Source: Calditrichales bacterium (GTDB lineage: Bacteria; Calditrichota; Calditrichia; Calditrichales; J004). Taken from it: DNA of 64,000 bases. The stretch is from positions 320,001-384,000 of the forward strand of contig OZ254086.1 of the NCBI GenBank assembly GCA_965267575.1, written 5' to 3'. The position numbers and the translations under genes are program-made. The notes below the pieces were generated by a model that had not been told where the DNA came from, ran no database searches, and saw only the letters and a program-made list of their open reading frames with translations. Of this stretch, positions 3,055-19,309 are shown piece after piece (the first letter of the stretch is position 1; each line of letters begins with the position of its first letter).

Positions 3055-5592
3055 CTACTTGATATATATGAGTTTTTTGATTTGGGTAACCGGTGCCCGT
3101 GAACGGTCGTCGAATTGCATGTACAACCGGTAAAAGTAAACCCCTGCTGTTACATCCGAGCCGTGGGCGTCCACCGCATCCCAGCCAATGGTATAGCGCC
3201 CGGGATTTTGCTGGCGGTCAACAAGCTGGTTCAGACGATGTCCGAGGATATCGTAGATTTCCAGTTTTACACGTGCCAGCGCGGGTACCGTGTAGCTGAT
3301 TTGCGTGGTGGGGTTGAAAGGATTGGGCGATGCCGTCAATTCGACCATGTCGGGCAAAGACGCCGATGGTCTGGCTATAACCCGTGTCGGCAAAAGGCTG
3401 GTGATCCACTCGCTTATGACCGATGCCCCGGCGGTATCGACGCGGTTACTTGCCAGCGGCGGCATGCGGTATTCAGCCAGGTTGATCATGCGCAGATATA
3501 CGACGGAGCTGTCTGGGTGGCCGGGCTTGATCCGGTCCGCACCTTCCACGCCAAGGTCGCCTAACTCAGGCGTTTCGTTTATTGTATTGGTAGCTTCCAG
3601 CATGGTGGCGTAGCGCAGGTCCATGTTGCTGCGGCCGGTGCCCTCCGGCTGGTGGCAGTAAGCACAGTTGCTGGCCAGGTAGGAGCGCGCTCTTTTTTCC
3701 AGGGGCTCTTCCGGGTCAAACGGATTGGGCCATTTCGGGAAATCACTGTAATCTTCACCAATATCCATTGTAAACAAATCGATGTGATTGTAGCTGCGCA
3801 GTTGGTTATCGCTTACACCATTCTCGTACACATGTTGTTTGTTGATTTGGGCCGTGCGCACACCGAGCACATAACCGGCCGCAGGTGTATGGCACTTCGA
3901 ACACTCGTTGCGGCTGGGGTAGTAGTGGCTGTGCGTATAGGAACCGCCTTCCGCGCTGGAATCAATGATGGTGTAATCCTTGGTGAGGCTGGTTTCCAGC
4001 AAGGAGGCGTCGGTGCCCTCCTCGTTCCAGAGATAGCTGTAGCCGTCCCACAGCTCGCCTTCCGATTGCTTCACAAGAAAGCGCGTTTCAATCAGCTTTT
4101 TGCTTTCGGGATTACCGCGCTCCAACTCCAGGTAAAAATTCTTCACAATAATAGCTTCCTGGGGAAACTCCCAGTGACCGTCTTCCGAAAAAGCGATCTG
4201 CGTAGTGCCGGGCAGGGCCAGAACACGTTCCTTATCAGCGCCATCGGACCAGAAAGGTGAGTTTATGGAATAGGGTATCAGACCGGGCGAAAGCTCGCGG
4301 GTTTGCATATCTGTATATAAACCCGATTCGGAAATGGTCTGCGGAACTGATGATGTCGTATCACCAATGGCTTCCTGGATGAACTTATAAATCTCGCCGC
4401 TAAGACTGACAATGTAGAGTTCGCCCTCTTCGTCTTCGGCAAAACTGGCAATGGAGTTAGGCGCAGTCAGCACCTTTTCATTGCTCTTCACTTCTCCATC
4501 GCGATAGTCCAGCGCCCAGACACTGCGCGAAACATAATCGCCGTAAAAATAAATGCCGTAGAAATCCGTCAGGTCATCCCCGCGGTAGACGTAGCCCCCC
4601 GTGATGGACTGCCCCTCATCATGGTCGTATTCGACAATCGGATCGATCAGCGGCTCGCCGGTGTCCTGGCAGTCATCGGAATAATAATGGAATCCTTCGC
4701 GGTGGTTCCAGCCGTAGTTTTTGCCGCTTTCGATGATATTTACCTCTTCCCACTTGCTTTGGCCCACGTCCGCGGCCCACAGCGTACCACTCACTCGATC
4801 AAAACTGAAGCGCCAGGGGTTGCGCAATCCGTAAGCGTAAATCTCCTCACGCCATTCGTTCTGGTTATCCGCATAAGGATTGTCCTGCGGGATGGCGTAT
4901 TCCAGGTTGGCGTCTTTATTATTTACATCAATGCGCAAAATTGAGCCCAGCAGCGTTGTCCGGTCCTGCCCGTTGCAATCGGGGTCGCCGCCACTGCCAC
5001 CATCGCCCAGGGCGATATACAAATAGTCATCCTGCCCGAATGCGATCATGCCGCCATTGTGATTGCTGTAAGGCTGAGGTGTGGTAAGCAGCACGCGCTC
5101 GCTTTCGGGATCGGCGGAGTCGGGATTATTGGAAACGAGAAACTCTGAAATAATACTGATCAACGGGTCAGCGTCGATATTATAGTGTACATAAAATTTG
5201 CCATTTTCTTTAAAATCCGGATGAAATGCAAGACCGAGCAGGCCTGCTTCACTGGGACCGTCATCCACTTTTCCGCTTATATCAAGAAATTCGCTGGCTT
5301 CGCCTTCGGACACATCGGCTTTGTTGGGAAAAACAAGGATACGCCCTTCTTTAAGAACAACAAATAAACGATCGCTCCCATCCGAGGCATGGGTCATAAA
5401 AATGGGCCGGCGCAAGTCCAGGTCGGCGAAAACGCGCTCCACCTTTAGCTGCGTTTGCACATCGCCGCTGCTGCTGATGAGCAGCGAAGTATTGGCCACG
5501 CGCTCTTCCAGCCCGTATGGCTGTGCAGAAACACTGTTATATGAGAAAGATATAAAAAGAAATAGAATAAGGGCCGGTATCGTTTTTGTCAT
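3055..5592 (-). CDS. Secreted PQQ-dependent sugar dehydrogenase (GSDH beta-propeller) fused to a two-CxxCH domain and a C-terminal sorting tail
   Basis: Signal peptide; GLLGLAFHP, NHNGG, GDGG, GLRNPWRFSFD, DVGQ, SITGGYVY; CSKCH and CAYCH; tail PNPFNPTT...AGVYFYRL...KKLIYIK. Confidence 0.88.
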   Translation of the reverse strand: MTKTIPALILFLFISFSYNSVSAQPYGLEERVANTSLLISSSGDVQTQLKVERVFADLDLRRPIFMTHASDGSDRLFVVLKEGRILVFPNKADVSEGEASEFLDISGKVDDGPSEAGLLGLAFHPDFKENGKFYVHYNIDADPLISIISEFLVSNNPDSADPESERVLLTTPQPYSNHNGGMIAFGQDDYLYIALGDGGSGGDPDCNGQDRTTLLGSILRIDVNNKDANLEYAIPQDNPYADNQNEWREEIYAYGLRNPWRFSFDRVSGTLWAADVGQSKWEEVNIIESGKNYGWNHREGFHYYSDDCQDTGEPLIDPIVEYDHDEGQSITGGYVYRGDDLTDFYGIYFYGDYVSRSVWALDYRDGEVKSNEKVLTAPNSIASFAEDEEGELYIVSLSGEIYKFIQEAIGDTTSSVPQTISESGLYTDMQTRELSPGLIPYSINSPFWSDGADKERVLALPGTTQIAFSEDGHWEFPQEAIIVKNFYLELERGNPESKKLIETRFLVKQSEGELWDGYSYLWNEEGTDASLLETSLTKDYTIIDSSAEGGSYTHSHYYPSRNECSKCHTPAAGYVLGVRTAQINKQHVYENGVSDNQLRSYNHIDLFTMDIGEDYSDFPKWPNPFDPEEPLEKRARSYLASNCAYCHQPEGTGRSNMDLRYATMLEATNTINETPELGDLGVEGADRIKPGHPDSSVVYLRMINLAEYRMPPLASNRVDTAGASVISEWITSLLPTRVIARPSASLPDMVELTASPNPFNPTTQISYTVPALARVKLEIYDILGHRLNQLVDRQQNPGRYTIGWDAVDAHGSDVTAGVYFYRLYMQFDDRSRAPVTQIKKLIYIK

Positions 5593-8526: not shown

Positions 8527-11500
8527 ATGAGATATTCACGCTTTATTCTTATTTGCCTTTCTTTTCTGTTTCTGGTTTCGGCCACTGTGCAGGCTTCGGA
8601 CGCTTTTAAAGAAGCGCGTCTGCAATACATCAAAGACCGTGAACTGCCGGCGCAGATTGAGTTTAAGCAGCAGGCGCCCACGGCGGATACTTTTTTTGAT
8701 GGTTTCCGCAGCCGGTTTAAGGTTAGTGAGGAAAACAGTTTCAGGGTGACTGCTGAACAGCGGGACAACCTGGGCCAGACACACCTGCGTTACAAGCAGT
8801 ATTACAAAAATGTCGAAGTGGACGCGGTCCAATACATTCTTCACACGCAGAATGAGCGGGTCATGAAAGCCAACGGCCATCTTGTGCGCGGCCTTGATCT
8901 GGATGTGACGCCAAAGCTCAATGAGCAGCGGGCCCTGGAGCGGGCGCTGAATCATGTAAGCGCCGAGACCTACATGTGGGAAAGCAAAAAGAATGAAGCG
9001 GCGCTTAAGCGCGAACAAAACGATCCCCAGGCTACCTTTTACCCCAAAGCGCAGCTGCTGGTTAGTGCCGGACGCAATACCCTGAAAGCTGAAAACTTCC
9101 GCCTGGTTTACCGTTTTGACATCTATGCTCAAGAACCCTTTGGGCGCTATTACGTGGATGTGGACGCACACACAGGTGAAGTGGTCGATCAGCTTACGCG
9201 CATTCACACCGGCGATGTGGACCTGTTGGGTGAATCCCTTTACAACGGCCGCGTGGACATGACCGGTTCCGATGAGTCCTTTCCTTCGATTTTGCCGGCG
9301 GTGTGGCACCTGGATGACTTTAACGCCTACGGCGGCGAAGGCTTTAGCTGGTGGATGGGCGATGAAGGCATCGGCGGTTATGACAATGACTGGTATAAGG
9401 TGCTGGATACCGATCCCGTTTACCTGGAAAACGGCGGCACGCTGACCTTTGTGCACCGCTACGGTTTGGAAGAGCCGGGTGGCGAGCCCGCGGGCTATAA
9501 TGGCTGGGACGGCATCAACGTGCGCATCTCCACGGACGGCGGCTATACCTGGGAAGTTTTGACCAATCCTTCCGTGGCCTACAGCCGCAGCAGTTTGTAC
9601 AGCTTTGGATTCCAGCACGGTGAAGGCGAAGGCGTACCCGGCTGGACCGGCGTGCAAAACAGCTGGACCGAAGTATCGTTCGACCTCTCCGCTTATGCCA
9701 ACCAGAACGCGCGCATCCGCTTTGCGTTTGCTTCCGACCCGGGCTATGCCACGGCGGATAACAGCGCCCTGTTCGGCTGGCAGGTAGATAATATTGAGAT
9801 AAAGGATGGCAATGACGCTTCCGTTTTGAGCAACAGCGGCGTGGCCGATTTTGTCACCGCGCGCAATAAAGAAGAGATTGTACCCGGAAAATACCGCCTG
9901 CGTTCGGTGGCACGAAGCGGCGTTTACACCTTCGATGCCCTGAACGGCACTAGCTATTCCCTTGCCGTGGATGTGGTTGACAACGATTCGCTCTTTGCCG
10001 ACAGCCGTCACGGAGCAGGCGTAAGCGCGCACTGGGGCAGTGAGAAATCGTACGACTATTTTTATATTTACCACGGGCGTGACAGCTACGACGACAACGG
10101 CTCGCCGATCCTGAGCTATGTCCATTTCGACGACGGCTATTTCAACGCTTTTTGGGATGGACAGCGCATGACGTTTGGCGACGGCACCAGCAACGCTTCC
10201 CCGCTTACCAGCGTGGATGTGGTGGCCCATGAATTGACACACGGCGTTACCGGCAATTCGGCTGGCCTCATTTACCGTGATGAGTCCGGCGCCCTGAACG
10301 AATCATTCAGCGATATTTTTGGAACGGCGGTGGAGTGGTACGCGGAAGGCGAAAGCTTTGATTACCTCATAGGCGAGGATTTTCAGACATTGCGCAGCAT
10401 GAGCAGCCCCAACCAGTTTGGCGATCCCGATACATACCAGGGCCAGAACTGGAACTTTGATCCCAACTTTGACAACGGTGGCGTACACATCAACAGCGGC
10501 GTGCAGAACAAGTGGTTCCACCTGCTGGTTGAAGGGGGCAGCGGAACAGACGATAACGGACGGAGCTACACTGTTTCCGGCATCGGTATGGAAAAAGCGC
10601 TGCAAATCTCATATCGCAACCTTACCGTTTACCTGACGCCCTCATCCGAGTATTTTGACGCGCGGCTGGGCGCGATCAATTCAGCGGCCGATATTTACGG
10701 CGGCGATTCCCCTGAGTACCAGGCCGTGATCGATGCCTGGGATGCCGTGGGTGTTTACTATCCGACATTTGAGCCCAATATCGTGGCCGATGCCGATACG
10801 CTGAATTTCCTGGCAGAAGCCGGCGTAGGCGTGGACAACGGTAAAGTCTCCTTCACCAATTATGGTTTGGATACGCTTGAAATTACTTCGGTGGAGCTGG
10901 TGAATAACAACGGCTTTACAATTGAAGCCGAGCTGAACCTGCCGCTGGAACTGACCTACGAGCAGAGCCTGACGTTAAACCTGCTTTTCGCCCCGGTTGA
11001 AGCAGGCAGCCAGGTTACCGAGCTTACCATGCAAACAAACGATCCCGCCAATCCAACCATGGTGATTGCCCTGAACGGTAAAGGCTACGCCATCAGCGCC
11101 GCCCAGGAAGGAACAATCTACGCGGTCTCTTCTGCTTCGGCGGTTTACAACGTGGACGCAAGCGGCGCGGCGAGCAAGCTGGGCGACAGCGGCTTTGAAG
11201 AGATCACCGGGATGGCCGTGCGCACCTCCAACAAGGAGCTGATCGGCTTTATGCTGGATAACAGCAGCACGCGTCTTGTACGCATCAACAGTGCCGGTGG
11301 CGATGCCTACCTGTTCCGTGATGTGGATGAGACACAGCTGCGCGCCATGGCCTTTGATTCGGACAGCGATTCGTTGTTTGCCATGCGCTACACCAGCGGG
11401 CAGCTTTACCATGTGGACATCAACAGCGGCGCGGCAACGGCTATCGCTTCAACCGGCATACGCCGCGTGGAGAGCATGACGCTTGATCCGATATCCGGTA

Positions 11501-12060
11501 AACTGTATGCCGTAACGCAGCAAAACGCCCTGTATGTCATCGACCGCACGGATGGCTCCAACAGCAACATCGGCGCGATTAGCATGGACAACGTGCGCGC
11601 CCTGGCCATGGATGAAAACGGCCAGCTTTTGGGTATCGCCAGCGGCGAAAGCGAAGATCAGCTTGTGGTGATCAATCCGGCCAACGCGGTAGCCACGGTG
11701 ATTGGCGGCGCGGGTGTGAGCGGCTTAAACGGCCTGGCGGTTTATGGCACCAGCCCGGTCACTTCCCTTGAGGATGAAGCTTTGGCGCAACAGCCCAATG
11801 TATTTGCCCTGGAGCAGAATTATCCCAACCCGTTCAACCCGTCCACGGTGATAAGCTATGCCTTGCCCAAAGCCAGCACGGTATCGCTTTCCGTTTTTGA
11901 TGTAACGGGCCGTGAAGTGGCGCGACTTGCCGAAGGCAGCCAGCCGGCGGGCATCTACAGCGTCACCTTTGATGCGTCGGGTCTCTCCAGCGGACTCTAT
12001 TTCTACAAGCTGCAGGCCGGTAGTTTTGTGCAAACCCGCAAAATGTTGCTTGTACGATAA
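8527..12060 (+). CDS. Secreted M4 (thermolysin/bacillolysin) metalloprotease with inserted beta-sandwich module, Ig-like domain, beta-propeller and sorting tail
   Basis: FTP/PepSY-like propeptide ([19 protein letters not shown]), [42 protein letters not shown] tail. Confidence 0.92.
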
Positions 12061-12085
12061 ACGGACTTTAAAAAGTCCACTCTCG

Positions 12086-12113
12086 GAAGGCCGTCCATTG
12101 GGCGGCCTTTTTT
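12086..12113 (+). terminator. Rho-independent terminator after the M4 gene
   Basis: AAGGCCGTCC-ATT-GGGCGGCCTT hairpin followed by a T run. Confidence 0.8.
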
Positions 12114-12159
12114 GTTTGCGTGGAATAAAAGAAAGGTTTGAAGTTAATGGTCTTGGGGT

Positions 12160-12284
12160 TATTAACGACCTTCAGGATAAGCGGCGCAATGCGCTCTCCA
12201 TGTTAGTGATGAATTAAATGGTAACTCAAATCTATAAACCAAGCAAGGCCAGTGAGTTGCGTCCGCTTGATGCCGTGGTTATGC
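12160..12284 (-). other. attC site of cassette 3
   Basis: Minus strand: R'' GCATAAC ... AAGCGGACGCAA / TTGCGCCGCTT inner arms ... R' GTTAATA. Confidence 0.8.
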
Positions 12285-12353
12285 GACAATGAGTCGTGAT
12301 GGAAACACTTCCCTCTGTTTAGATTATTCAGTTCTAAAATTGCGACAAAGCGT

Positions 12354-13163
12354 TTAAAACTCAACAGTTGGTTCCGGTTGATACAAAACATTAGTGTATT
12401 CACCCATAGCTGCGAGGCCCTGATTAATCCATTCGACCAAGCCGCTGTTGACTTGCGGCAATAGCGAAACTTCCACGACAAGCATCGTAAAGAGGCCTAT
12501 CCAATATACCCGATGAACGGCTCCGTGAGAAAACCAGTCATATAGGATCCCGATAATTATAAATAAACTACAACTGAGGGCGCCTATTGGCAGGGACAAG
12601 GGATGAAAACCGCTTAGGAACAGAATCAATCGAAAGAAACCAGCTCCAAGACCTATTGCGCTGGCAATAATAATCAGTCTCTTGTGAGCCTGAAGACGGT
12701 TCTTTATGGCCATATAAATACCGGCAGAGTAGAATAAAACGAAAAGAACCAGATTCGAAAGTATCAGCGCACCATAAAGTAACCACACCTGGGGCTCTCC
12801 TGTACGCATTGCCTCTTCTACACGGACGGTCAGTACAAGGATGCCGGTCAGCGTCATTATAATAACTAACACAATACTAAACCGACCCAGGGTCATATGC
12901 AGGGTATCCTTTCCCTTGGCCATCAATATTGCTTGGAGGGGAAACAGCAGATACCAAAGAAAAAAGGACCAACCATGCAGGTGTAAGGGAAACCCCGCCG
13001 GTGCATATGTGCCACTAATAATTGGTCCAAAATACGTGAAAGAGAATCCCGCAAAACCGGTTATACTGATCAGAATGGCAAGCGCTGGATAAAAGAGGTA
13101 ATCTCTATTTGTTTGTATTGTGCTTAGATTCATTTTTCCCAGAATACTCATCCGTAATCCCAA
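12354..13163 (-). CDS. Cassette-encoded multi-pass membrane protein with several His residues in or near TM helices
   Basis: About seven hydrophobic segments; HLHG, LHMTLG, AHKRL. The start could be ATG 13151 or further downstream. Confidence 0.75.
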   Translation of the reverse strand: MGLRMSILGKMNLSTIQTNRDYLFYPALAILISITGFAGFSFTYFGPIISGTYAPAGFPLHLHGWSFFLWYLLFPLQAILMAKGKDTLHMTLGRFSIVLVIIMTLTGILVLTVRVEEAMRTGEPQVWLLYGALILSNLVLFVLFYSAGIYMAIKNRLQAHKRLIIIASAIGLGAGFFRLILFLSGFHPLSLPIGALSCSLFIIIGILYDWFSHGAVHRVYWIGLFTMLVVEVSLLPQVNSGLVEWINQGLAAMGEYTNVLYQPEPTVEF

Positions 13164-13199
13164 ATATCTTTAATATACTGATTTTGAATAGCATGAGCC

Positions 13200-13323
13200 G
13201 CATAACGCTGCATTTCAGCCGCCGCCTCGACGGACTATCGCGCATTAACTAACTTCATATTAACTACCTAATATTCCAAGACCACCATGCTTCGCTCGGT
13301 CGGCTGCAAATGTTTTGTTAGGG
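13200..13323 (-). other. attC site of cassette 2
   Basis: Minus strand: R'' CCCTAAC, CATTTGCAGCCGACCG ... GGCGGCTGAAATG, R' GTTATGC; one extra base on one arm, as expected for attC. Confidence 0.9.
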
Positions 13324-13334
13324 CCCTTGGATCT

Positions 13335-14447
13335 TTACGCATTTTTAAAACTAAAATAAAAATGTTTATCACCTATTGGTATACCACTTTTTTGAAGCAT
13401 CAATTCTTTCATTAATTCTGGGCTTATACCAAAAATATATTTTTTATCTTTTTTTAGCTGTATTTTAAAATATTTATTAGTAGGGGTTAAATTAGGATTC
13501 TTTATTAAAATACAATTTCCTTCTTTTTTAGAAATAAATGCAAAATACTTTGATTTGCACAAATTAAAATACTTTCTCAATTCATTATTCCACTTATTTT
13601 CCCACTCTTGACGCCCTAAAATCATACTTTCTGAATTCATCAATATTTTGGGATGTTTCGTTATACTAGATGAAGTAACCCAAACATTATCCCTAACTAA
13701 ACATGTTATAATATCAATAAATTCATATTCTTTTAAATCCCGTGTTATTTCTTCTTTGTTCGAAAATTGTATTGTAAAATTTGATAAATCAGGTGGATAT
13801 AAGATATAAGTTATATCTTTGTGCCAAAAAAATCCCTCCTTATCAATACCTGCTCCAAATATGCCCCCACCTACATTCGATTTCATTAAAGGATTATGAA
13901 TGCCTAAATATTGCATAAAGCATAGCATGGATTGTAGCAAATGTTCAGAATCTATATTGCCGCTCTTCATATAATTCAAAAGGCCTTCTATAATAATTCT
14001 TATCTCATTATTCAAACTTCCCATTGATGCTAAAGAATCAAAAGAATGAAAAATTTCTGGCTCCTTATTAAACCATCCCATAAGAAAGGAATCTTTTTCA
14101 CTATTATATCCCATTAATATAAATTTTGTGGGTTGTTCAATTAAGGTTGGATTTGATTTAGATATTTCTACTAATGATTCTTGAATGTCCATATAGGATA
14201 GTTTTATCTTTAATTCGGAAACAATTTTTTGTGCTGTAGTAACATCTCCACTATAGGATACAGCTATGTAATTTGTTAAAGGAATAATTTTTACGCCAGT
14301 TTCTTCGACAACTTCGCCTTTAATATTTCTCTCTTGGAGTTCTCCGAATGACGAGAATGACTCAGTTGGTTCTTTGTAGTGAGTTATAGCTGTATCGCTT
14401 ATACAGAATACTGAATTTTGATGTTTCCATGCCAAAACGTATGTCAT
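13335..14447 (-). CDS. Cassette-encoded hypothetical protein, probable Ntn-hydrolase (proteasome beta/Anbu-like) N-terminal domain
   Basis: Starts MTYVLAWK...ISDTAIT, later GVKII, SYSGD, MGS, VGGG; very AT-rich. Confidence 0.6.
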   Translation of the reverse strand: MTYVLAWKHQNSVFCISDTAITHYKEPTESFSSFGELQERNIKGEVVEETGVKIIPLTNYIAVSYSGDVTTAQKIVSELKIKLSYMDIQESLVEISKSNPTLIEQPTKFILMGYNSEKDSFLMGWFNKEPEIFHSFDSLASMGSLNNEIRIIIEGLLNYMKSGNIDSEHLLQSMLCFMQYLGIHNPLMKSNVGGGIFGAGIDKEGFFWHKDITYILYPPDLSNFTIQFSNKEEITRDLKEYEFIDIITCLVRDNVWVTSSSITKHPKILMNSESMILGRQEWENKWNNELRKYFNLCKSKYFAFISKKEGNCILIKNPNLTPTNKYFKIQLKKDKKYIFGISPELMKELMLQKSGIPIGDKHFYFSFKNA

Positions 14448-14471
14448 AATATTAACCTATTATATTATGTG

Positions 14472-14576
14472 CCCTAACGCTGGGCATAACGCGCTGGGCA
14501 ATACACTGTCTAAGCCCATGCACTTCTCGAATTGGCTAAAGGCGTGATCCAGTCGCCGTTGATGCCCTTGTTATAA
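14472..14576 (-). other. attC site of cassette 1
   Basis: Minus strand: R'' TTATAAC, GGGCATCAACGGCGACTGG ... CCAGCGCGTTATGCCC, R' GTTAGGG. Confidence 0.9.
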
Positions 14577-14591
14577 GCTACAAAAGTTAAA

Positions 14592-15095
14592 TTAAATGCC
14601 ACCATTTTCAGTTTTGTAGTATTTCCATTTTTTGGTTTTACAATTGAACTTAAAAAATATAGTAGTCCAATCACTTAAAGAAATGGAATAGTTAAGATTG
14701 ATCTGATTCTTGGAAACATTTTTAACTAATTTCCCATGATATGGAATAACAGTAATTTCAATCAGATCATTTTTGACTTTTAGTGGAAATATTTTCACTT
14801 GAATTAACGTGTTACCATTTTTATTGTAAATATATTCTTTATTTGTATCGGTTAAAATTGTGATCTCTTTTCCATTTACTAAGTCTGGTATATTTTTAAA
14901 AAGACTAGTTTCTTCAAGATAGATAGTTTCATATTTAAATGGATTGACAGAATATCTTGAATAAAATGAATCTATTTCGACTGTGTATTTTTCCAATGCA
15001 ATTAAATAAAGGGAATCATTTTCACTCACAGATTGTGCCTTGATGAAAATCATTGGCAGAAATATAATAACTAGTATTAATTGTGATTTTTTCAT
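14592..15095 (-). CDS. Cassette-encoded small secreted hypothetical protein
   Basis: Signal peptide MKKSQLILVIIFLPMIFIKA|Q; AT-rich; bounded by the attI-like site and an attC. Confidence 0.8.
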   Translation of the reverse strand: MKKSQLILVIIFLPMIFIKAQSVSENDSLYLIALEKYTVEIDSFYSRYSVNPFKYETIYLEETSLFKNIPDLVNGKEITILTDTNKEYIYNKNGNTLIQVKIFPLKVKNDLIEITVIPYHGKLVKNVSKNQINLNYSISLSDWTTIFFKFNCKTKKWKYYKTENGGI

Positions 15096-15115
15096 TCTAT
15101 CATTTCACAGTTAAA

Positions 15116-15242
15116 GCTTATAACAAGTATTAGACGTACTAAAATCCATGTTATAACATTCCTAATTATGAAAATTTATATGTGGAAAAAATTCCATATA
15201 AGACGCCTATAGCGTGGTATAGATGGAAAATTTTCCATATAA
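15116..15242 (-). promoter_or_regulatory. attI-like site with upstream repeated motifs
   Basis: Core GTTATAA (15124-15118) preceded by CGTCTAATACTT, with no attC-type long palindrome. Two 19-nt near-identical repeats (15183-15201, 15224-15242) lie upstream. Confidence 0.6.
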
Positions 15243-15387
15243 AAACACGGTTTTAGTAACCCTATTTTATTTTACACTAATATAACCACGAATATCTGAA
15301 ATAACAGCTTTTTCTGCACCGTTTAACAAATATCCCAGCCTTTAATATTGGCGTTTGATTTTGTCTTTCAGGCAACTTTGTTTGCGG

Positions 15388-15496
15388 AAACCGATGAATC
15401 GGTTTGGAGAGTATTATGTGCGTTTGTACCCACGTCTGAAGTCGTGGGATAAGGGTTTCAGAGGCAGATCATTAACCCATGACTTAAGTCATGGGT
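15388..15496. repeat. REP-like palindrome cluster
   Basis: AAACCGATGAATCGGTTT (15388-15405), CCCACGTCTGAAGTCGTGGG (15429-15448), perfect 22-bp ACCCATGACTTAAGTCATGGGT (15475-15496). Confidence 0.75.
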
Positions 15497-15518
15497 AGGA
15501 AAAAAAGACAAGACAGCA

Positions 15519-15707
15519 GGATGGGCAGGATTTATTATATGGCAAATTCGGCGCGAAATCATGTCCCCCTTAGAAAAGGGGGCAAGGGGGTTGTCCTTCA
15601 CCTATAATGGCAAAAGCCGCATTTACAACCCCTCAATCCCCTTTGTTAAGGGGAAAGCAGGTACTCAGGTTATTTATAAAACTTAATTTCTTTTATCCTG
15701 CCCATCC
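15519..15707. repeat. Nested miniature inverted-repeat elements
   Basis: Outer perfect 13-bp IR GGATGGGCAGGAT (15519-15531) / ATCCTGCCCATCC (15695-15707). Inner imperfect ~30-bp IR (15564-15594 / 15625-15654), each arm with a CCCCTT-Nn-AAGGGG hairpin. Confidence 0.75.
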
Positions 15708-15728
15708 CGTTAATCCTGTCAAAACATA

Positions 15729-18700
15729 CTACCTAAGCAAGATCATCTTGCGCACGGCGCGGTAGCCCTGGGCCTCTATGCGGTAGAAGTATGTGCCGGA
15801 AGCTACCTCTCGGCCCAGATGGTCACGGCCGTCCCAGACCACTTCATGCCTCACGCCGGCGGAGTATTTACGGGCATCCAGCAGACGCCGCACGATGGCG
15901 CCGCGGATATCGTAGATAGTCAGATTCACCGGCGCGTTTTCCGCCAGGCTAAAGGCGATCCGCGTAGTGGGGTTAAAGGGATTGGGGTAATTGGGCATAA
16001 GGTTAAACCGCGCGGGCCCCTTCACAAAGGATTTCTCCAGCGTGGTCAGCGTTCCCTGGATCTCGATATTGTCGATGGCCCAGCCCCAACCGTTCACAAA
16101 CGGGTCGGCAAAGAGACGGAAACGGATCAGGATCGTATCACCGGCGCTGAAATGATCCAGTAAATTCAGCTCGTGGTCCACGTAGAGATCAAATTCGCCA
16201 TCCTGGTCGTTTGTGTAGGCATCCAGCCAGGCCTGATCGTAACGGGCATCGTAGCCGTCGGCCAGCGGAATCCAGTCCGCCGCGTTCTTCGTGGCCTCCA
16301 CAACCACGTAATCCCAGAAATCTTCATCACCAAACTGGCTGCCGGATTCACCCGGTTCAATCAGCGCGATGTCGCGGTAGCGCATAAAGGCGTTATCGGC
16401 GCTAACCTTGATCGGGCTGGACAACGTATAGGTAATGCCGCGGTCGTTTTCATAAGGGTGATCGCTGTGAATGGCCCAGTCGCGGTTAAACTTATTGACC
16501 AGTTTGCGTTGAAAGCCCTCGCCGAAGAAATCCTCATCGCCGCCATCGCTGAAGTCATTGGTATAGGTATCGCGCGGGGCGGCCAGAATGTAAAATTCCG
16601 CGTCGCGTTCTTCACTGCGCAAAGGGCGATCGTCTTCATACGAAACCAGCTTCAGGGTGACCGTTTGCGATTCCTGCCCGTCAAAAGGCGCCACGAACGT
16701 GGTATCCCCTTCGGCGGAAGCGCCCAGCGAATAAATCCATACATCATTGGCATACACGCGCGTGGAGTCGTAATTGCCGCGCAGCGAAGCATTGATTTCA
16801 AAACCGGGTAGAGGGTTGTATTGCGCGCTGTTGAAGCGCGGAGATAAAGCTACTTTGGGAGGCTCATAACCGGAAAGCTGCCCCAGGCTGATCGTCCAGA
16901 TGCCGCGGCCGTGTGTCGCCGCCACCACCTGGTCATTGACAATCTTCAGCTCAAAAACCGAAACGTTGGGCAGGTTGCCGGCCAGCGGGTGCCAGCTCGC
17001 GCCATCATCGCTGGATTCAAAAATGCCGATATCCGTTCCCGCCCACAGGATGTCCGTATCGGGGATATCCACCAACGAATAGACCGCCACATCGGGGAAG
17101 CCATTGTTGCTGCTGCTGCCGGAGCCGAAGCCGCTGATGTCTTCCCAGCTGCCGCCCCAGTTGGTCGTGCGCAGAATTTTTGGCCCCTGGGCGTAAGAGA
17201 ATAAGGCATAGGCCGTCTGCTCATCCGTGGAGTGCGTGGCAATACCGCTGATGCGTCCCAGCGGGTTTTCGTTGTAGCCGCTTACCGTGCTAAAGGTGTA
17301 GCCGCCGTCCGTGGACAGATAGAGGCGATCGTTGCTGTTAAAGTTGCGCCCTGCCCAAATGGTTTGCGGGTTGGCCGTAGAGATTTCGATATGGGTAAAA
17401 CTGCTGGTGCCGACCCAGCCGGCGGGACTGGCCACAAGCTCCCAGCTGCTGCCAAAATCGGCCGAGCGGTAAATGCCGGAAGCCCCCGCCGCAAAAACCA
17501 CATCCGGGTCCTGCTGCGATCCGGCGATCTTGGTGTAAAAAGGCGCGTTGCCGCTGCCCGTTTCAAGGCCAATCGTGGCGGAACTAAACGACTGCCCGCC
17601 ATCGCTGGATTTGGAGATGCCGTTAAACTGGCTGGAGGCCAGGATCAGGTCGGGGTTCGTGTAATGCCAGACGGTCTGGAATCCATCGCCGCCTTTGCGC
17701 ACAATCCAGTTGGAGCCGGCATCCGCATCAACACCGGCCGGCGACTGGTACGTATTGTTGTCCTGCATGCCGCCAATGTATTCGCTGGCGCCGTTTTTCT
17801 TATCCACGCCGTAAAACTGCGAGGTGTTGTAGCCGTTTTCCGTGTGGCTGAATGTGCTGCCGCCATTATCCGAGTAAGAGACGCCACCGTCATTACAAAC
17901 AATCATGCGGTAGCTTTGCGATGCCGAATCGGTTACGACCATGACGATATTATGCTGGTCAACATGCACGCCCTTGCTGCTGCCGCCAAATTGCCCGTAT
18001 CCGTCGGTTACAACCGTTGTTTCAATTTTGTCATCATTCTCCACATCGATGCGCCACAGGTTTATGCCCCCAACAAAAACGATGTCTTCATCAAAGGGAT
18101 GCACATTGATGGTATTGTCGTACCAGCCCTGGCCGCCCAGCCAGTTGTAGGCGCTGCCGGTTTTTTCCGAGGCTGCCGCCCAGGTCTGACCATAGTCGCG
18201 CGAGATGTAGAGCGTAGCTCCGGTGCCTGACGCACCTCCATCAGCTGAAATATAAAGCCGTGATGGATCGGTGGGCGCCACAGCAATCTCCATCCGCCCA
18301 ACGCCGCTGAACGGCGCGGAAACGAGGCTCCAGCTTTCACCGCCGTCCTCAGAGCGCGCCACGCCCGTGCCCTTAACCGTGGCATATTGCCGGCTGAAAT
18401 CGGTCGGGTCGGCGATAAGGTGCTCTATGCGACTGCTGTTGCTGTATTCTTTGCTCCAGTTTGCACCGCCATCTGTGCTTTTCCAGATACCGGAAGAAGA
18501 GGCCGTGGAGCTGTTGTGGTTAAATCCGGCGGCCGTGGAAGCCAGAATGATATTTTCATTATCCGGGTCGATGGCCAGCCGCGTCACATTCTGGAAATCC
18601 AGATTGGAGGTGCTTTGCAGCAGTTGCCAGCTGGCGCCGCGATCCGTTGTTTTCCAGATGCCGCTGCCGTCAACCTGGTCCACGTTGCCAAAGCCCTCGC

Positions 18701-19292
18701 CTGTTCCCACGTACATCACATCGGGATTGGATGGCGCCTGCACGATCGCACTGGTGGCAAAATTGCCCAGATCCGGCGTCATTAGCGTCCAGCTTTGGCC
18801 GGCATCCGTTGTTTTCCACACCCCGCCGCCAACCGAACCGGCATAAAAGGTGCCGGCCGTCGGATCATCGGCATCCACAACCAGGCCGCGCGTGCGTCCC
18901 GAAACATTGCCCGGTCCGCGCTCCACCCACGTAGCCAATCCGCTGCTTTTTTGCAGTGTGCTTTTGCGCTGCTGCCACTCGGCGATGCTGCTCACATTAT
19001 AGGCCTTCAGCAACTCGCTAACGCGATAATTGAAAGGATATGCCGGCCCGCCCTCGCGGTAACGAATGCCATAAAGGTATTCATAAAATTTATCCGGGGC
19101 ATCCATCCGCAGCATGCCTTTTACGCGCTGCTTGCGTTGGGCAACTGCCTCATCCGCCTGCGCTTTCTTTTCGATCGCCGCCTTGCGGATAGTGGCATCA
19201 TCGCTAATAACCGGTGCTTTGGTCAGAATATGCTGCAGGCCGGTAAAAGCCGCGGCAAGGATGATCAGCGTGATAAACAGACGCTTGGCCAT
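15729..19292 (-). CDS. Large secreted Asp-box/BNR (VPS10/GH74-like) beta-propeller protein with beta-sandwich module and sorting tail
   Basis: WVERGPGNVSGRTR, many S/T-x-DGG-x-S/T-W repeats, [18 protein letters not shown] tail. Start at ATG 19292 (the ORF track uses TTG 19307). Confidence 0.85.
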   Translation of the reverse strand: MAKRLFITLIILAAAFTGLQHILTKAPVISDDATIRKAAIEKKAQADEAVAQRKQRVKGMLRMDAPDKFYEYLYGIRYREGGPAYPFNYRVSELLKAYNVSSIAEWQQRKSTLQKSSGLATWVERGPGNVSGRTRGLVVDADDPTAGTFYAGSVGGGVWKTTDAGQSWTLMTPDLGNFATSAIVQAPSNPDVMYVGTGEGFGNVDQVDGSGIWKTTDRGASWQLLQSTSNLDFQNVTRLAIDPDNENIILASTAAGFNHNSSTASSSGIWKSTDGGANWSKEYSNSSRIEHLIADPTDFSRQYATVKGTGVARSEDGGESWSLVSAPFSGVGRMEIAVAPTDPSRLYISADGGASGTGATLYISRDYGQTWAAASEKTGSAYNWLGGQGWYDNTINVHPFDEDIVFVGGINLWRIDVENDDKIETTVVTDGYGQFGGSSKGVHVDQHNIVMVVTDSASQSYRMIVCNDGGVSYSDNGGSTFSHTENGYNTSQFYGVDKKNGASEYIGGMQDNNTYQSPAGVDADAGSNWIVRKGGDGFQTVWHYTNPDLILASSQFNGISKSSDGGQSFSSATIGLETGSGNAPFYTKIAGSQQDPDVVFAAGASGIYRSADFGSSWELVASPAGWVGTSSFTHIEISTANPQTIWAGRNFNSNDRLYLSTDGGYTFSTVSGYNENPLGRISGIATHSTDEQTAYALFSYAQGPKILRTTNWGGSWEDISGFGSGSSSNNGFPDVAVYSLVDIPDTDILWAGTDIGIFESSDDGASWHPLAGNLPNVSVFELKIVNDQVVAATHGRGIWTISLGQLSGYEPPKVALSPRFNSAQYNPLPGFEINASLRGNYDSTRVYANDVWIYSLGASAEGDTTFVAPFDGQESQTVTLKLVSYEDDRPLRSEERDAEFYILAAPRDTYTNDFSDGGDEDFFGEGFQRKLVNKFNRDWAIHSDHPYENDRGITYTLSSPIKVSADNAFMRYRDIALIEPGESGSQFGDEDFWDYVVVEATKNAADWIPLADGYDARYDQAWLDAYTNDQDGEFDLYVDHELNLLDHFSAGDTILIRFRLFADPFVNGWGWAIDNIEIQGTLTTLEKSFVKGPARFNLMPNYPNPFNPTTRIAFSLAENAPVNLTIYDIRGAIVRRLLDARKYSAGVRHEVVWDGRDHLGREVASGTYFYRIEAQGYRAVRKMILLR

Positions 19293-19309
19293 GGTATGTC
19301 CTTTCAATG

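Follow-up and report, generated by a model that had tools for sequence, protein, structure and literature searches.

How does an integron cassette array come to stand between two host genes in a genome whose assembly holds no integron integrase? The question is raised by a stretch of Calditrichales bacterium DNA (GenBank assembly GCA_965267575.1, contig OZ254086.1, positions 320,001 to 384,000; 64,000 nucleotides, hereafter the window), in which a first-pass annotation made from the letters alone had placed an integrase-less array of three cassettes headed by an attI-like site. Our answer is that this is very probably a true array of integron cassettes, which retains its attI site and leader and has no integrase. 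CALINs (attC clusters without an integron integrase) were defined in 2016 as at least two clustered attC sites with no intI nearby (PMC4889954). Here there are three clustered attC sites and no nearby intI, and the intI adjoining attI that makes an integron complete is found neither at the locus nor elsewhere in the genome; the array is thus a CALIN that retains attI. Coordinates are window positions unless prefixed with C1, the single 4.73-Mb contig of the genome, or with the label of a relative (G003, G004, G007, G034 or G035). G000 denotes the genome itself, with its attI-headed arrays lettered A (in the window), B, C and D and its further attC islands E and F.

The array runs along the minus strand from 15123 to 12166 as three cassettes, each closed by an attC-type site. 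The open reading frames (ORFs) of cassettes 3, 2 and 1, all minus-strand, lie at 14592–15095 (167 aa), 13335–14447 (370 aa) and 12354–13163 (269 aa, encoding a multi-pass membrane protein). Immediately 3′ of each, on its own strand, is an imperfect inverted repeat whose ends read TAAC ... GTTA at all three sites: attC3 at 14472–14576, attC2 at 13200–13323 and the terminal attC1 at 12160–12284, giving an attC spacing of 1.0–1.3 kb. ORFs and hairpins were thus found where the first-pass annotation had put them.

The reading is carried first by the way in which each attC site fits its own cassette. The R″ box of each site is complementary to the 5′ end of the cassette that it closes, over 10, 8 and 8 bp for cassettes 3, 2 and 1 (9, 8 and 8 bp had been claimed), as against 4–5 bp for non-self pairs, which share the common GTTA/TAAC only. 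On the plus strand the box pairs are GCTTATAAC at 15116 with GTTATAAGC at 14570 for cassette 3, GCCCTAAC at 14471 with GTTAGGGC at 13317 for cassette 2, and CGCATAAC at 13199 with GTTATGCG at 12278 for cassette 1, each word being unique or nearly so within the window. In attC terms, attC3, the best of the sites, has R″ (AGC)TTATAAC and R′ GTTAGGG, with its link reaching to 15115–15124; attC2 has R″ GCCCTAAC and R′ GTTATGC; and attC1, the weakest, has R″ CGCATAAC and R′ GTTAATA. Such links would be expected if circular cassettes had opened at G|TT and been inserted at attI.

A chain search was then defined which starts from the junction at 15124, seeks the reverse complement of the first bases of the cassette and moves to the next GTT past the hairpin. 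It returned all three cassettes unaided: 15123–14478 (646 bp, 10-bp link), 14477–13206 (1272 bp, 8-bp link) and 13205–12166 (1040 bp, 8-bp link). On the minus strand of the window, 3 of 212 octamers beginning GTTA have their reverse complement 300–1500 nt downstream, and these three are precisely the array links; over the whole genome the figure is 515 of 26,452. Chains of two links are seen at only two loci genome-wide, array A and one near 4252.5 kb, which we considered as a second array and rejected as chance, as it sits in coding DNA of host GC. The far end of array A is also a G|TT junction with host DNA.

Composition agrees with a foreign origin, since the host flanks have a GC content of 0.52–0.60 against 0.25–0.33 for cassettes 3 (about 0.25) and 2 and 0.43–0.47 for cassette 1. 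The AT-richness attributed earlier to all three ORFs is therefore strong for two and mild for the third. The proposal that the cassettes came from diverse donors is compatible with the differing attC sequences and with GC values of 26–30% versus 45%, and is not proven by them.

An attC site is expected to fold from its bottom strand, which here is the plus strand of the window. The bottom strand of attC3 forms a short R helix and, past a small unpaired spacer, an L stem with bulged bases G14561, C14556 and T14553, and that of attC2 forms R box, spacer and L stem with bulges C13307 and T13300. In both sites every single-base bulge lies on the 3′ arm of the bottom strand and the 5′ arm of the L stem has none, an asymmetry that attC sites should show. 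The fold of attC1 is less canonical: its R′-side spacer is 8 nt long, and its two G bulges can be drawn by eye and are missing from the minimum-energy fold. The extrahelical bases that the first-pass annotation expected on the bottom strands are thus present in attC3 and attC2, and in attC1 by eye only.

Rfam at gathering thresholds gave no match in the window. MAFFT with RNAalifold on seven attC sites gave no consensus structure, because the spacers misalign, and for that reason a first lineage covariance model (R1) was built from four consistently aligned sites of the same genome, attC3 among them, with the structure written by hand. Applied to the relative G003, R1 found 44 sites, including a dense minus-strand array at C1:520–12939 of that genome adjoining an intI at C1:15530–16468; the attC family of our genome is therefore one used by real integrons of the family. 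A second model (R2) was trained solely on 35 G003 attC sites beside intI, with none from our genome. Of the 9 L-stem pairs in its training set 7 covary, and pairing holds in 93% of cells, versus 21–40% with the partners slid, in an alignment fitted to the model, which favours structure. When R2 was run over the whole window on both strands with filters off, attC3 ranked first (25.1 bits, E = 0.0065; E = 0.00046 locally).

The second body of evidence concerns the other side of the first junction. The crossover lies between 15123 and 15124 on the plus strand, which is G|TT on the minus strand, and the 215 bases to its right are not unique: blastn against the genome places copies at C1:1226192–1226403 (88% identity) and C1:4680150–4680357 (86%), and a short inverted one near C1:2470175. 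A 33-nt core at 15121–15153 is identical in all four places and occurs exactly four times in the genome, the further copies of the attI-like sequence for which a search had been proposed. When the copies are aligned, similarity starts right at the crossover AAC and the preceding cassette sequence differs from copy to copy, the pattern that a constant attI would show when a different first cassette adjoins each copy. The core is identical at 33 of 33 positions in copies A, B and C, and the remaining leader at 83–90%; together attI and leader form an AT-rich block of 205 bp (15124–15328 in the window) that these three have in common and whose end falls on the same base in each. Of copy D only about 60 bp remain.

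Each of the four core copies heads a low-GC island with attC sites on its cassette side, and no recombinase or transposase was found on the attI side of any of them. Locus B has several attC sites, including 1225401–1225312 and 1224463–1224375, and, at 1224733, an exact 9-bp link. In locus C the R″ of an attC at 4671416–4671328 agrees over 9 bp with the junction 8.7 kb off, and locus D has one cassette, encoding a 370-aa lipoprotein-like product, with an 8-bp link. The 8.7 kb between attI copy C and its matching attC (C1:4671324–4680153, or 7325–16154 of L010) hold a czc-like efflux set (an outer-membrane factor, a CusB/HlyD-type adaptor and an AcrB-family pump), a protein with a type IX secretion system (T9SS) tail and a cation-diffusion transporter, all reading against the normal direction of cassette genes; the stretch is either a giant cassette or a cassette later invaded.

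The identity of this block as attI comes from relatives. Among 40 related genomes searched with it, matches were found at four places in G035, a Calditrichaceae genome of the same order and another family (73–78% identity), at one in G034 and weakly in G004. In contig C165 of G035 the homologue of the core lies at 4354–4432, and 135 bp further on begins a full intI (4567–5508; 472.5 bits against a cut-off of 265 for the integron integrase profile TIGR02249, model positions 1–314), beside which the first cassette shows the same link between R″ and 5′ end. Two of the four G035 copies run directly into intI, intact in C165 and broken in C13, and the distance from crossover to ATG there is about 213 bp, close to the 205-bp leader here. 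Since the core adjoins intI in G035, the window block corresponds, by homology, to a bona fide attI and the stretch between it and the start of intI. An attI is the fixed partner of the first junction, between array and intI, and it is the homology to the G035 site that places the window block there. This supports the earlier proposal of an array built by IntI and left as a CALIN or orphan attI platform. The second, broken G035 intI (C13:1649–2519) is interrupted by one TAG, its two pieces overlapping at about 2016–2020, with attI and leader intact.

Orphan copies of attI occur in the relatives as well. The two further leader copies in G035 have no intI; they end within the first intI codons, 2 nt apart and each at G|TT on the minus strand, and one of these stands at the head of a cassette with a 10-bp link. 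In G003, its own attI is present as one intI-linked copy (C1:15165–15278) and four orphan copies about 95–115 bp long (C9:1202–1314, C9:14571–14663, C2:243785–243865 and C13:77805–77898); similarity starts at TAAC in all, and for three of the four orphans the model places attC matches no more than 1.3 kb away, on the side and strand expected. Just past the crossover, a short motif is common to the attI cores of G000, G035 and G003. Judging from these genomes, orphan attI copies beside complete integrons would commonly be found in the order Calditrichales, as a habit of the lineage. Metagenome contigs scanned with the core and with a degenerate core pattern gave no match, and a scan of genome contigs matched one genome only, a Calditrichaceae metagenome-assembled genome that is G035 itself.

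Insertion of cassettes at attI leaves unexplained why copies A, B and C end at precisely the same base on the far side of the leader, where the first letters of the block (on the minus strand) are TT and the base before them is G, A and G respectively. One explanation is that leader, attI and cassettes moved together as a composite circle, formed by recombination of an attC with a secondary GTT site (attG) at the intI-proximal edge of the leader and then reinserted at GTT sites. Such a unit would explain both the common end base of the three copies and the presence of the block between unrelated host genes. It is in keeping with the G|TT junction at the distal end of array A, with the two G035 orphan leaders ending 2 nt apart at G|TT, and with the documented insertion and excision by IntI at GWT genomic sites (10.1101/2022.09.11.507474). 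However, blastn finds the terminal attC1 of array A nowhere else in the genome, which removes a common carrier attC for three units and led us to reject the idea of one terminal attC common to arrays A–C. Copy D and the G003 orphans end elsewhere without the TT pattern, the boundaries are ambiguous by 1–2 nt, and no empty target site was found in the nearest genomes, where synteny is lost. We therefore hold the composite circle as a tentative and rather doubtful account. The broader proposition built on it, that attI, leader and cassettes form a docking module copied and moved by integrase within Calditrichales, seeding integrase-less platforms that outlive the integrase, seems to us equally tentative.

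The genome is a single contig estimated at 98% completeness, and in it TIGR02249 gives ten tyrosine-recombinase matches, none over the cut-off of 265; by the same measure, 21 of the 40 relatives, and 6 of the 9 in the same family, have an IntI. A tblastn search with the G035 IntI returned only Xer-like genes of at most 32% identity and no IntI remnant. Beside the attI end, none of the ORFs of at least 40 aa between 15125 and 15729 is a recombinase, as the first-pass annotation had said, and the tyrosine recombinase nearest to the array is Xer-like and 45 kb off. The suggestion that an intI elsewhere in the genome serves the array in trans thus finds no support in the assembly, which has at least four attI-headed arrays, plus attC islands at about 1234.3–1236.7 kb and 4458.7–4476 kb, and no IntI.

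Could another tyrosine recombinase of this genome act on the array instead? The candidate is the Xer-like gene at C1:286556–287374 (283/298 aa), 45 kb from the array, which is the closest to IntI in the genome, with 127.6 + 99.7 bits to TIGR02249 and E = 1.4e-43 to the solved IntI4 structure 2a3v. Both matches are split, however: positions 180–237 of the profile are unmatched, and the alignment to 2a3v comes in two pieces only, leaving about residues 179–244 of IntI4 unaligned, the segment that distinguishes integron integrases, in contrast to an end-to-end alignment with XerA (E = 9.7e-48). Integron integrases carry an insertion of about 35 residues near patch III that is absent from other tyrosine recombinases (PMC4889954), and this integron-specific insertion is not present in the candidate. 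Several relatives, including some with a true IntI, have 298-aa frames that match the IntI profile in a similarly split way and below the cut-off, and the distribution of these frames would suggest a conserved Xer-type gene. A role for this recombinase at the array sites is accordingly very improbable.

Given a retained attI and no integrase in the assembly, we infer insertion by IntI and propose the following course. Three circular cassettes would have been inserted successively by an integron integrase, the folded bottom strand of each attC recombining with attI at G|TT (15124|15123). The order of the array would record three insertions, the newest adjoining attI. The genome would since have lost every intI, or would never have had one of its own, and with no IntI the array would be frozen, being now most likely static. 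Cassette transcription would have two sources only, the leader and read-through from the host gene upstream, which is co-oriented. No sigma-70-like site was found on the minus (cassette) strand of the leader, and the scan gave 11 such sites versus 15.0 ± 3.5 in shuffles; a promoter for the cassettes in the leader is therefore not claimed. The leader does hold two similar near-palindromic boxes at 15177–15201 and 15218–15242 (GGAAAA..TTCC flanked by ATAT/TATAA), partly conserved in G035, which could be operators or accessory integrase-binding sites. The second ends at 15242, the end coordinate given to the array by the first-pass annotation.

Several points weigh against this interpretation. 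By the lineage models one attC site is clear, one marginal and one without support, a mixed outcome for the covariance-model check that had been proposed. attC3 was itself in the training set of R1. attC2 is returned by R1 with exact bounds at 16.7 bits (E = 0.06) and by R2 as a partial match only (9.5 bits), and attC1 is placed by R1 with exact bounds at a mere 11.1 bits (E = 2.4) and not matched by R2. Neither are the hairpins significantly more stable than dinucleotide shuffles, with bottom-strand z scores of −1.77 for attC3, −1.09 for attC2 and +0.33 for attC1. For attC2 and attC1 the evidence is therefore the link signature, together with their structure and their placement between ORFs. 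The attI core is perfectly kept in four copies in a genome without IntI, which is odd for a dead site, and a plasmid-borne or unbinned intI may exist, the absence being established for the assembly only. In relatives neither an empty site nor variant cassette content was found, for want of conserved synteny: the nearest genomes are of other genera, and the orthologues of the genes flanking arrays A and B are non-adjacent in relatives of the family.

The unremarkable hairpin stabilities, the failure of two of the three sites under the independent model R2 and the single chance two-link chain elsewhere in the genome could be taken together to mean that there is no integron here at all, merely horizontally acquired genes separated by chance inverted repeats or terminators. 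This would require three consecutive self-specific links of 10, 8 and 8 bp to have arisen in a chain anchored on a block homologous to an intI-adjacent attI, with attC3 fitting the attC family of the G003 integron and the same architecture recurring at three more loci. We regard the probability of this as close to nil.

If an integrase from the organism or from its community, carried by a plasmid, by an element missing from the assembly or by mobile DNA coming in, served the four attI sites in trans, cassettes would still turn over, and a core identical in four copies against a leader only 83–90% identical suggests ongoing constraint. Orphan attI sites and a resident intI coexist in G035 and G003, which fits one integrase with several docking sites, and CALINs are said to be mobilisable in trans (10.1101/2025.06.18.660453). 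The sequencing runs that hold DNA of the array each have millions of contigs, and the genome probably comes from a mixed sample; no RNA run is listed among them. On the other hand, there is no IntI in the 98%-complete contig. Contigs of four runs from one sample, probably the source, cover 11500–15149 with no difference and no joints inside the array, though rare variants are dropped in such contigs and rare excision would be invisible in them. These contigs break in the leader repeat, and among the matches listed the three with the right-hand part of the leader fit copies A–C. Service in trans is on balance unlikely, and a stranded array with its attI is the reading that we retain.

Host genes stand on either side of the array. 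To the left, at 8527–12060 on the plus strand, is a secreted M4 (thermolysin-type) metallopeptidase with a T9SS C-terminal sorting domain (PF02868, PF01447 and PF18962), for which a terminator scan places a terminator at 12085–12111. To the right, at 15729–19307 on the minus strand, is a BNR/sortilin-repeat protein with a T9SS sorting domain (PF15902 and PF18962), in the same orientation as the cassettes and upstream of them. Orthologues of the BNR gene occur in G003, G004 and G007 (54–55% identity), none of them adjoining an orthologue of the M4 peptidase. Between leader and BNR gene, outside the integron, a host-side spacer at 15329–15728 holds multi-copy hairpin repeats; its hairpin-rich segments 15387–15452 and 15547–15659 each have many diverged genomic copies (69–82% identity) and resemble repeats of the repetitive extragenic palindrome (REP) type.

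The cassette proteins gave little away. The product of the cassette 1 ORF matches PF10067 (DUF2306) at E = 1.5e-4 and 22.4 bits, under the cut-off of 31.6 bits, and has no NCBIfam or PADLOC match. That of cassette 2 has no Pfam or PADLOC family; among 5.8 billion proteins it has four homologues of 71–74% identity, none functionally named and one called hypothetical protein. A faint proteasome/Ntn-hydrolase lead exists for it in TIGR03634 (E = 0.0023, 17.5 bits against a cut-off of 224) and in one Atlas cluster with PF00227 on 13% of its members. The cassette 3 protein has a hydrophobic N-terminus, which suggests export; its lone Pfam match is below threshold and probably spurious, and its look-alikes in the Atlas are unnamed Bacteroidota clusters. 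PADLOC assigned none of the three proteins to a defence family. The cassette genes are ordinary ORFans, content typical of chromosomal cassettes.

Some other regions of the genome were noted in passing. Low-GC islands with attC-model matches and no attI copy lie at C1:1234250–1236750 (island E, with sites E1 at 1235797–1235894 and E2 at 1236581–1236678 joined by an exact 9-bp link) and C1:4458700–4476000 (island F, with F1–F3 at 4460416, 4463917 and 4474477). They look like insertions of the CALIN type or of the SALIN type (single attC sites lacking integron integrases). An attC-like match at C1:3826104–3826197 (E = 0.06) beside tyrosine recombinases was judged a false positive; the surrounding C1:3822000–3831000 is phage-like or integrative-element-like, with a DnaB-type helicase and two tyrosine recombinases (243 and 365 aa). 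Beside the Xer-like gene begins another low-GC island (0.32–0.47), C1:287000–296000, with a GC-rich 70-nt hairpin at 288687–288760 and, by eye, a regulator of the ArsR type and small proteins bearing CxxC motifs for metal binding; the island is a possible mercury or heavy-metal element.

How does the array compare with known systems? It resembles the published CALINs (PMC4889954) in having three attC sites in 3 kb, ORFan cassettes, a genome without IntI and no intI pseudogene; in that survey about half of the CALIN-bearing genomes had no IntI, and 95% of CALINs had no recognisable intI pseudogene. The survey describes attI as unknown for most integrons and hence not searchable (PMC4889954), and its account of CALINs does not distinguish those that bear an attI, whereas here attI and a 205-bp leader are kept, and four times over. 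With attI unknown for most integrons, a CALIN left as a stranded platform cannot normally be told apart from a stray insertion; here the attI was recognised through an intI-linked homologue.

The complete integrons of the same order, at G035:C165 and G003:C1, share with array A the cassettes on one strand followed by attI and the G|TT crossover, as well as homology of the attI core (G035) and of the attC family to which attC3 belongs (G003). They differ in having a diverging intI after the leader, and the G003:C1 array has at least 17 model matches compared with three cassettes here. Complex class 1 integrons with two attI1 sites, such as the SGI1 integron, are partial duplications within one mobile integron that keeps intI1. 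They too have more than one attI-headed array per replicon, but here the copies are dispersed over 4.7 Mb and no integrase is present.

Insertions at attG and SALINs, as described by Loot et al. (10.1101/2022.09.11.507474), are like array A in being remote from an integrase, in lying between host genes and in their GTT-type outer junctions, and single-attC, SALIN-like islands also occur elsewhere in our genome. An attG insertion carries the cassette only, however, and the attI and leader of array A would not be predicted from the mechanism as given there unless a composite circle had formed. In Xanthomonas, chromosomal integrons whose intI was inactivated or lost show, as here, arrays that persist without integrase activity; CALINs there stand at fixed loci and are interpreted as stabilised cassette sets (10.1101/2025.06.18.660453). 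The Xanthomonas platform described in that study occupies one ancestral locus, whereas our four attI copies lie at unrelated loci.

Several routes to CALINs were listed by Cury et al. in 2016, and attG insertion was added by Loot et al. (10.1101/2022.09.11.507474). Here the arrays have kept their docking site, and that site has multiplied, with four copies in this genome and orphans in two relatives, while staying perfectly conserved without an integrase. If the docking module were truly mobile, it would give a concrete origin for many CALINs, and a single integrase, resident or visiting, could load cassettes at many chromosomal sites. A defined attI, defined attC sites and a candidate cognate IntI from a relative make both the origin of CALINs and their activation in trans directly testable. 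The literature that we searched contains no description of dispersed integrase-less attI copies, which is not proof that none exists. Set against the published description of CALINs, the array itself is ordinary, and what is new is the multiplied orphan attI.

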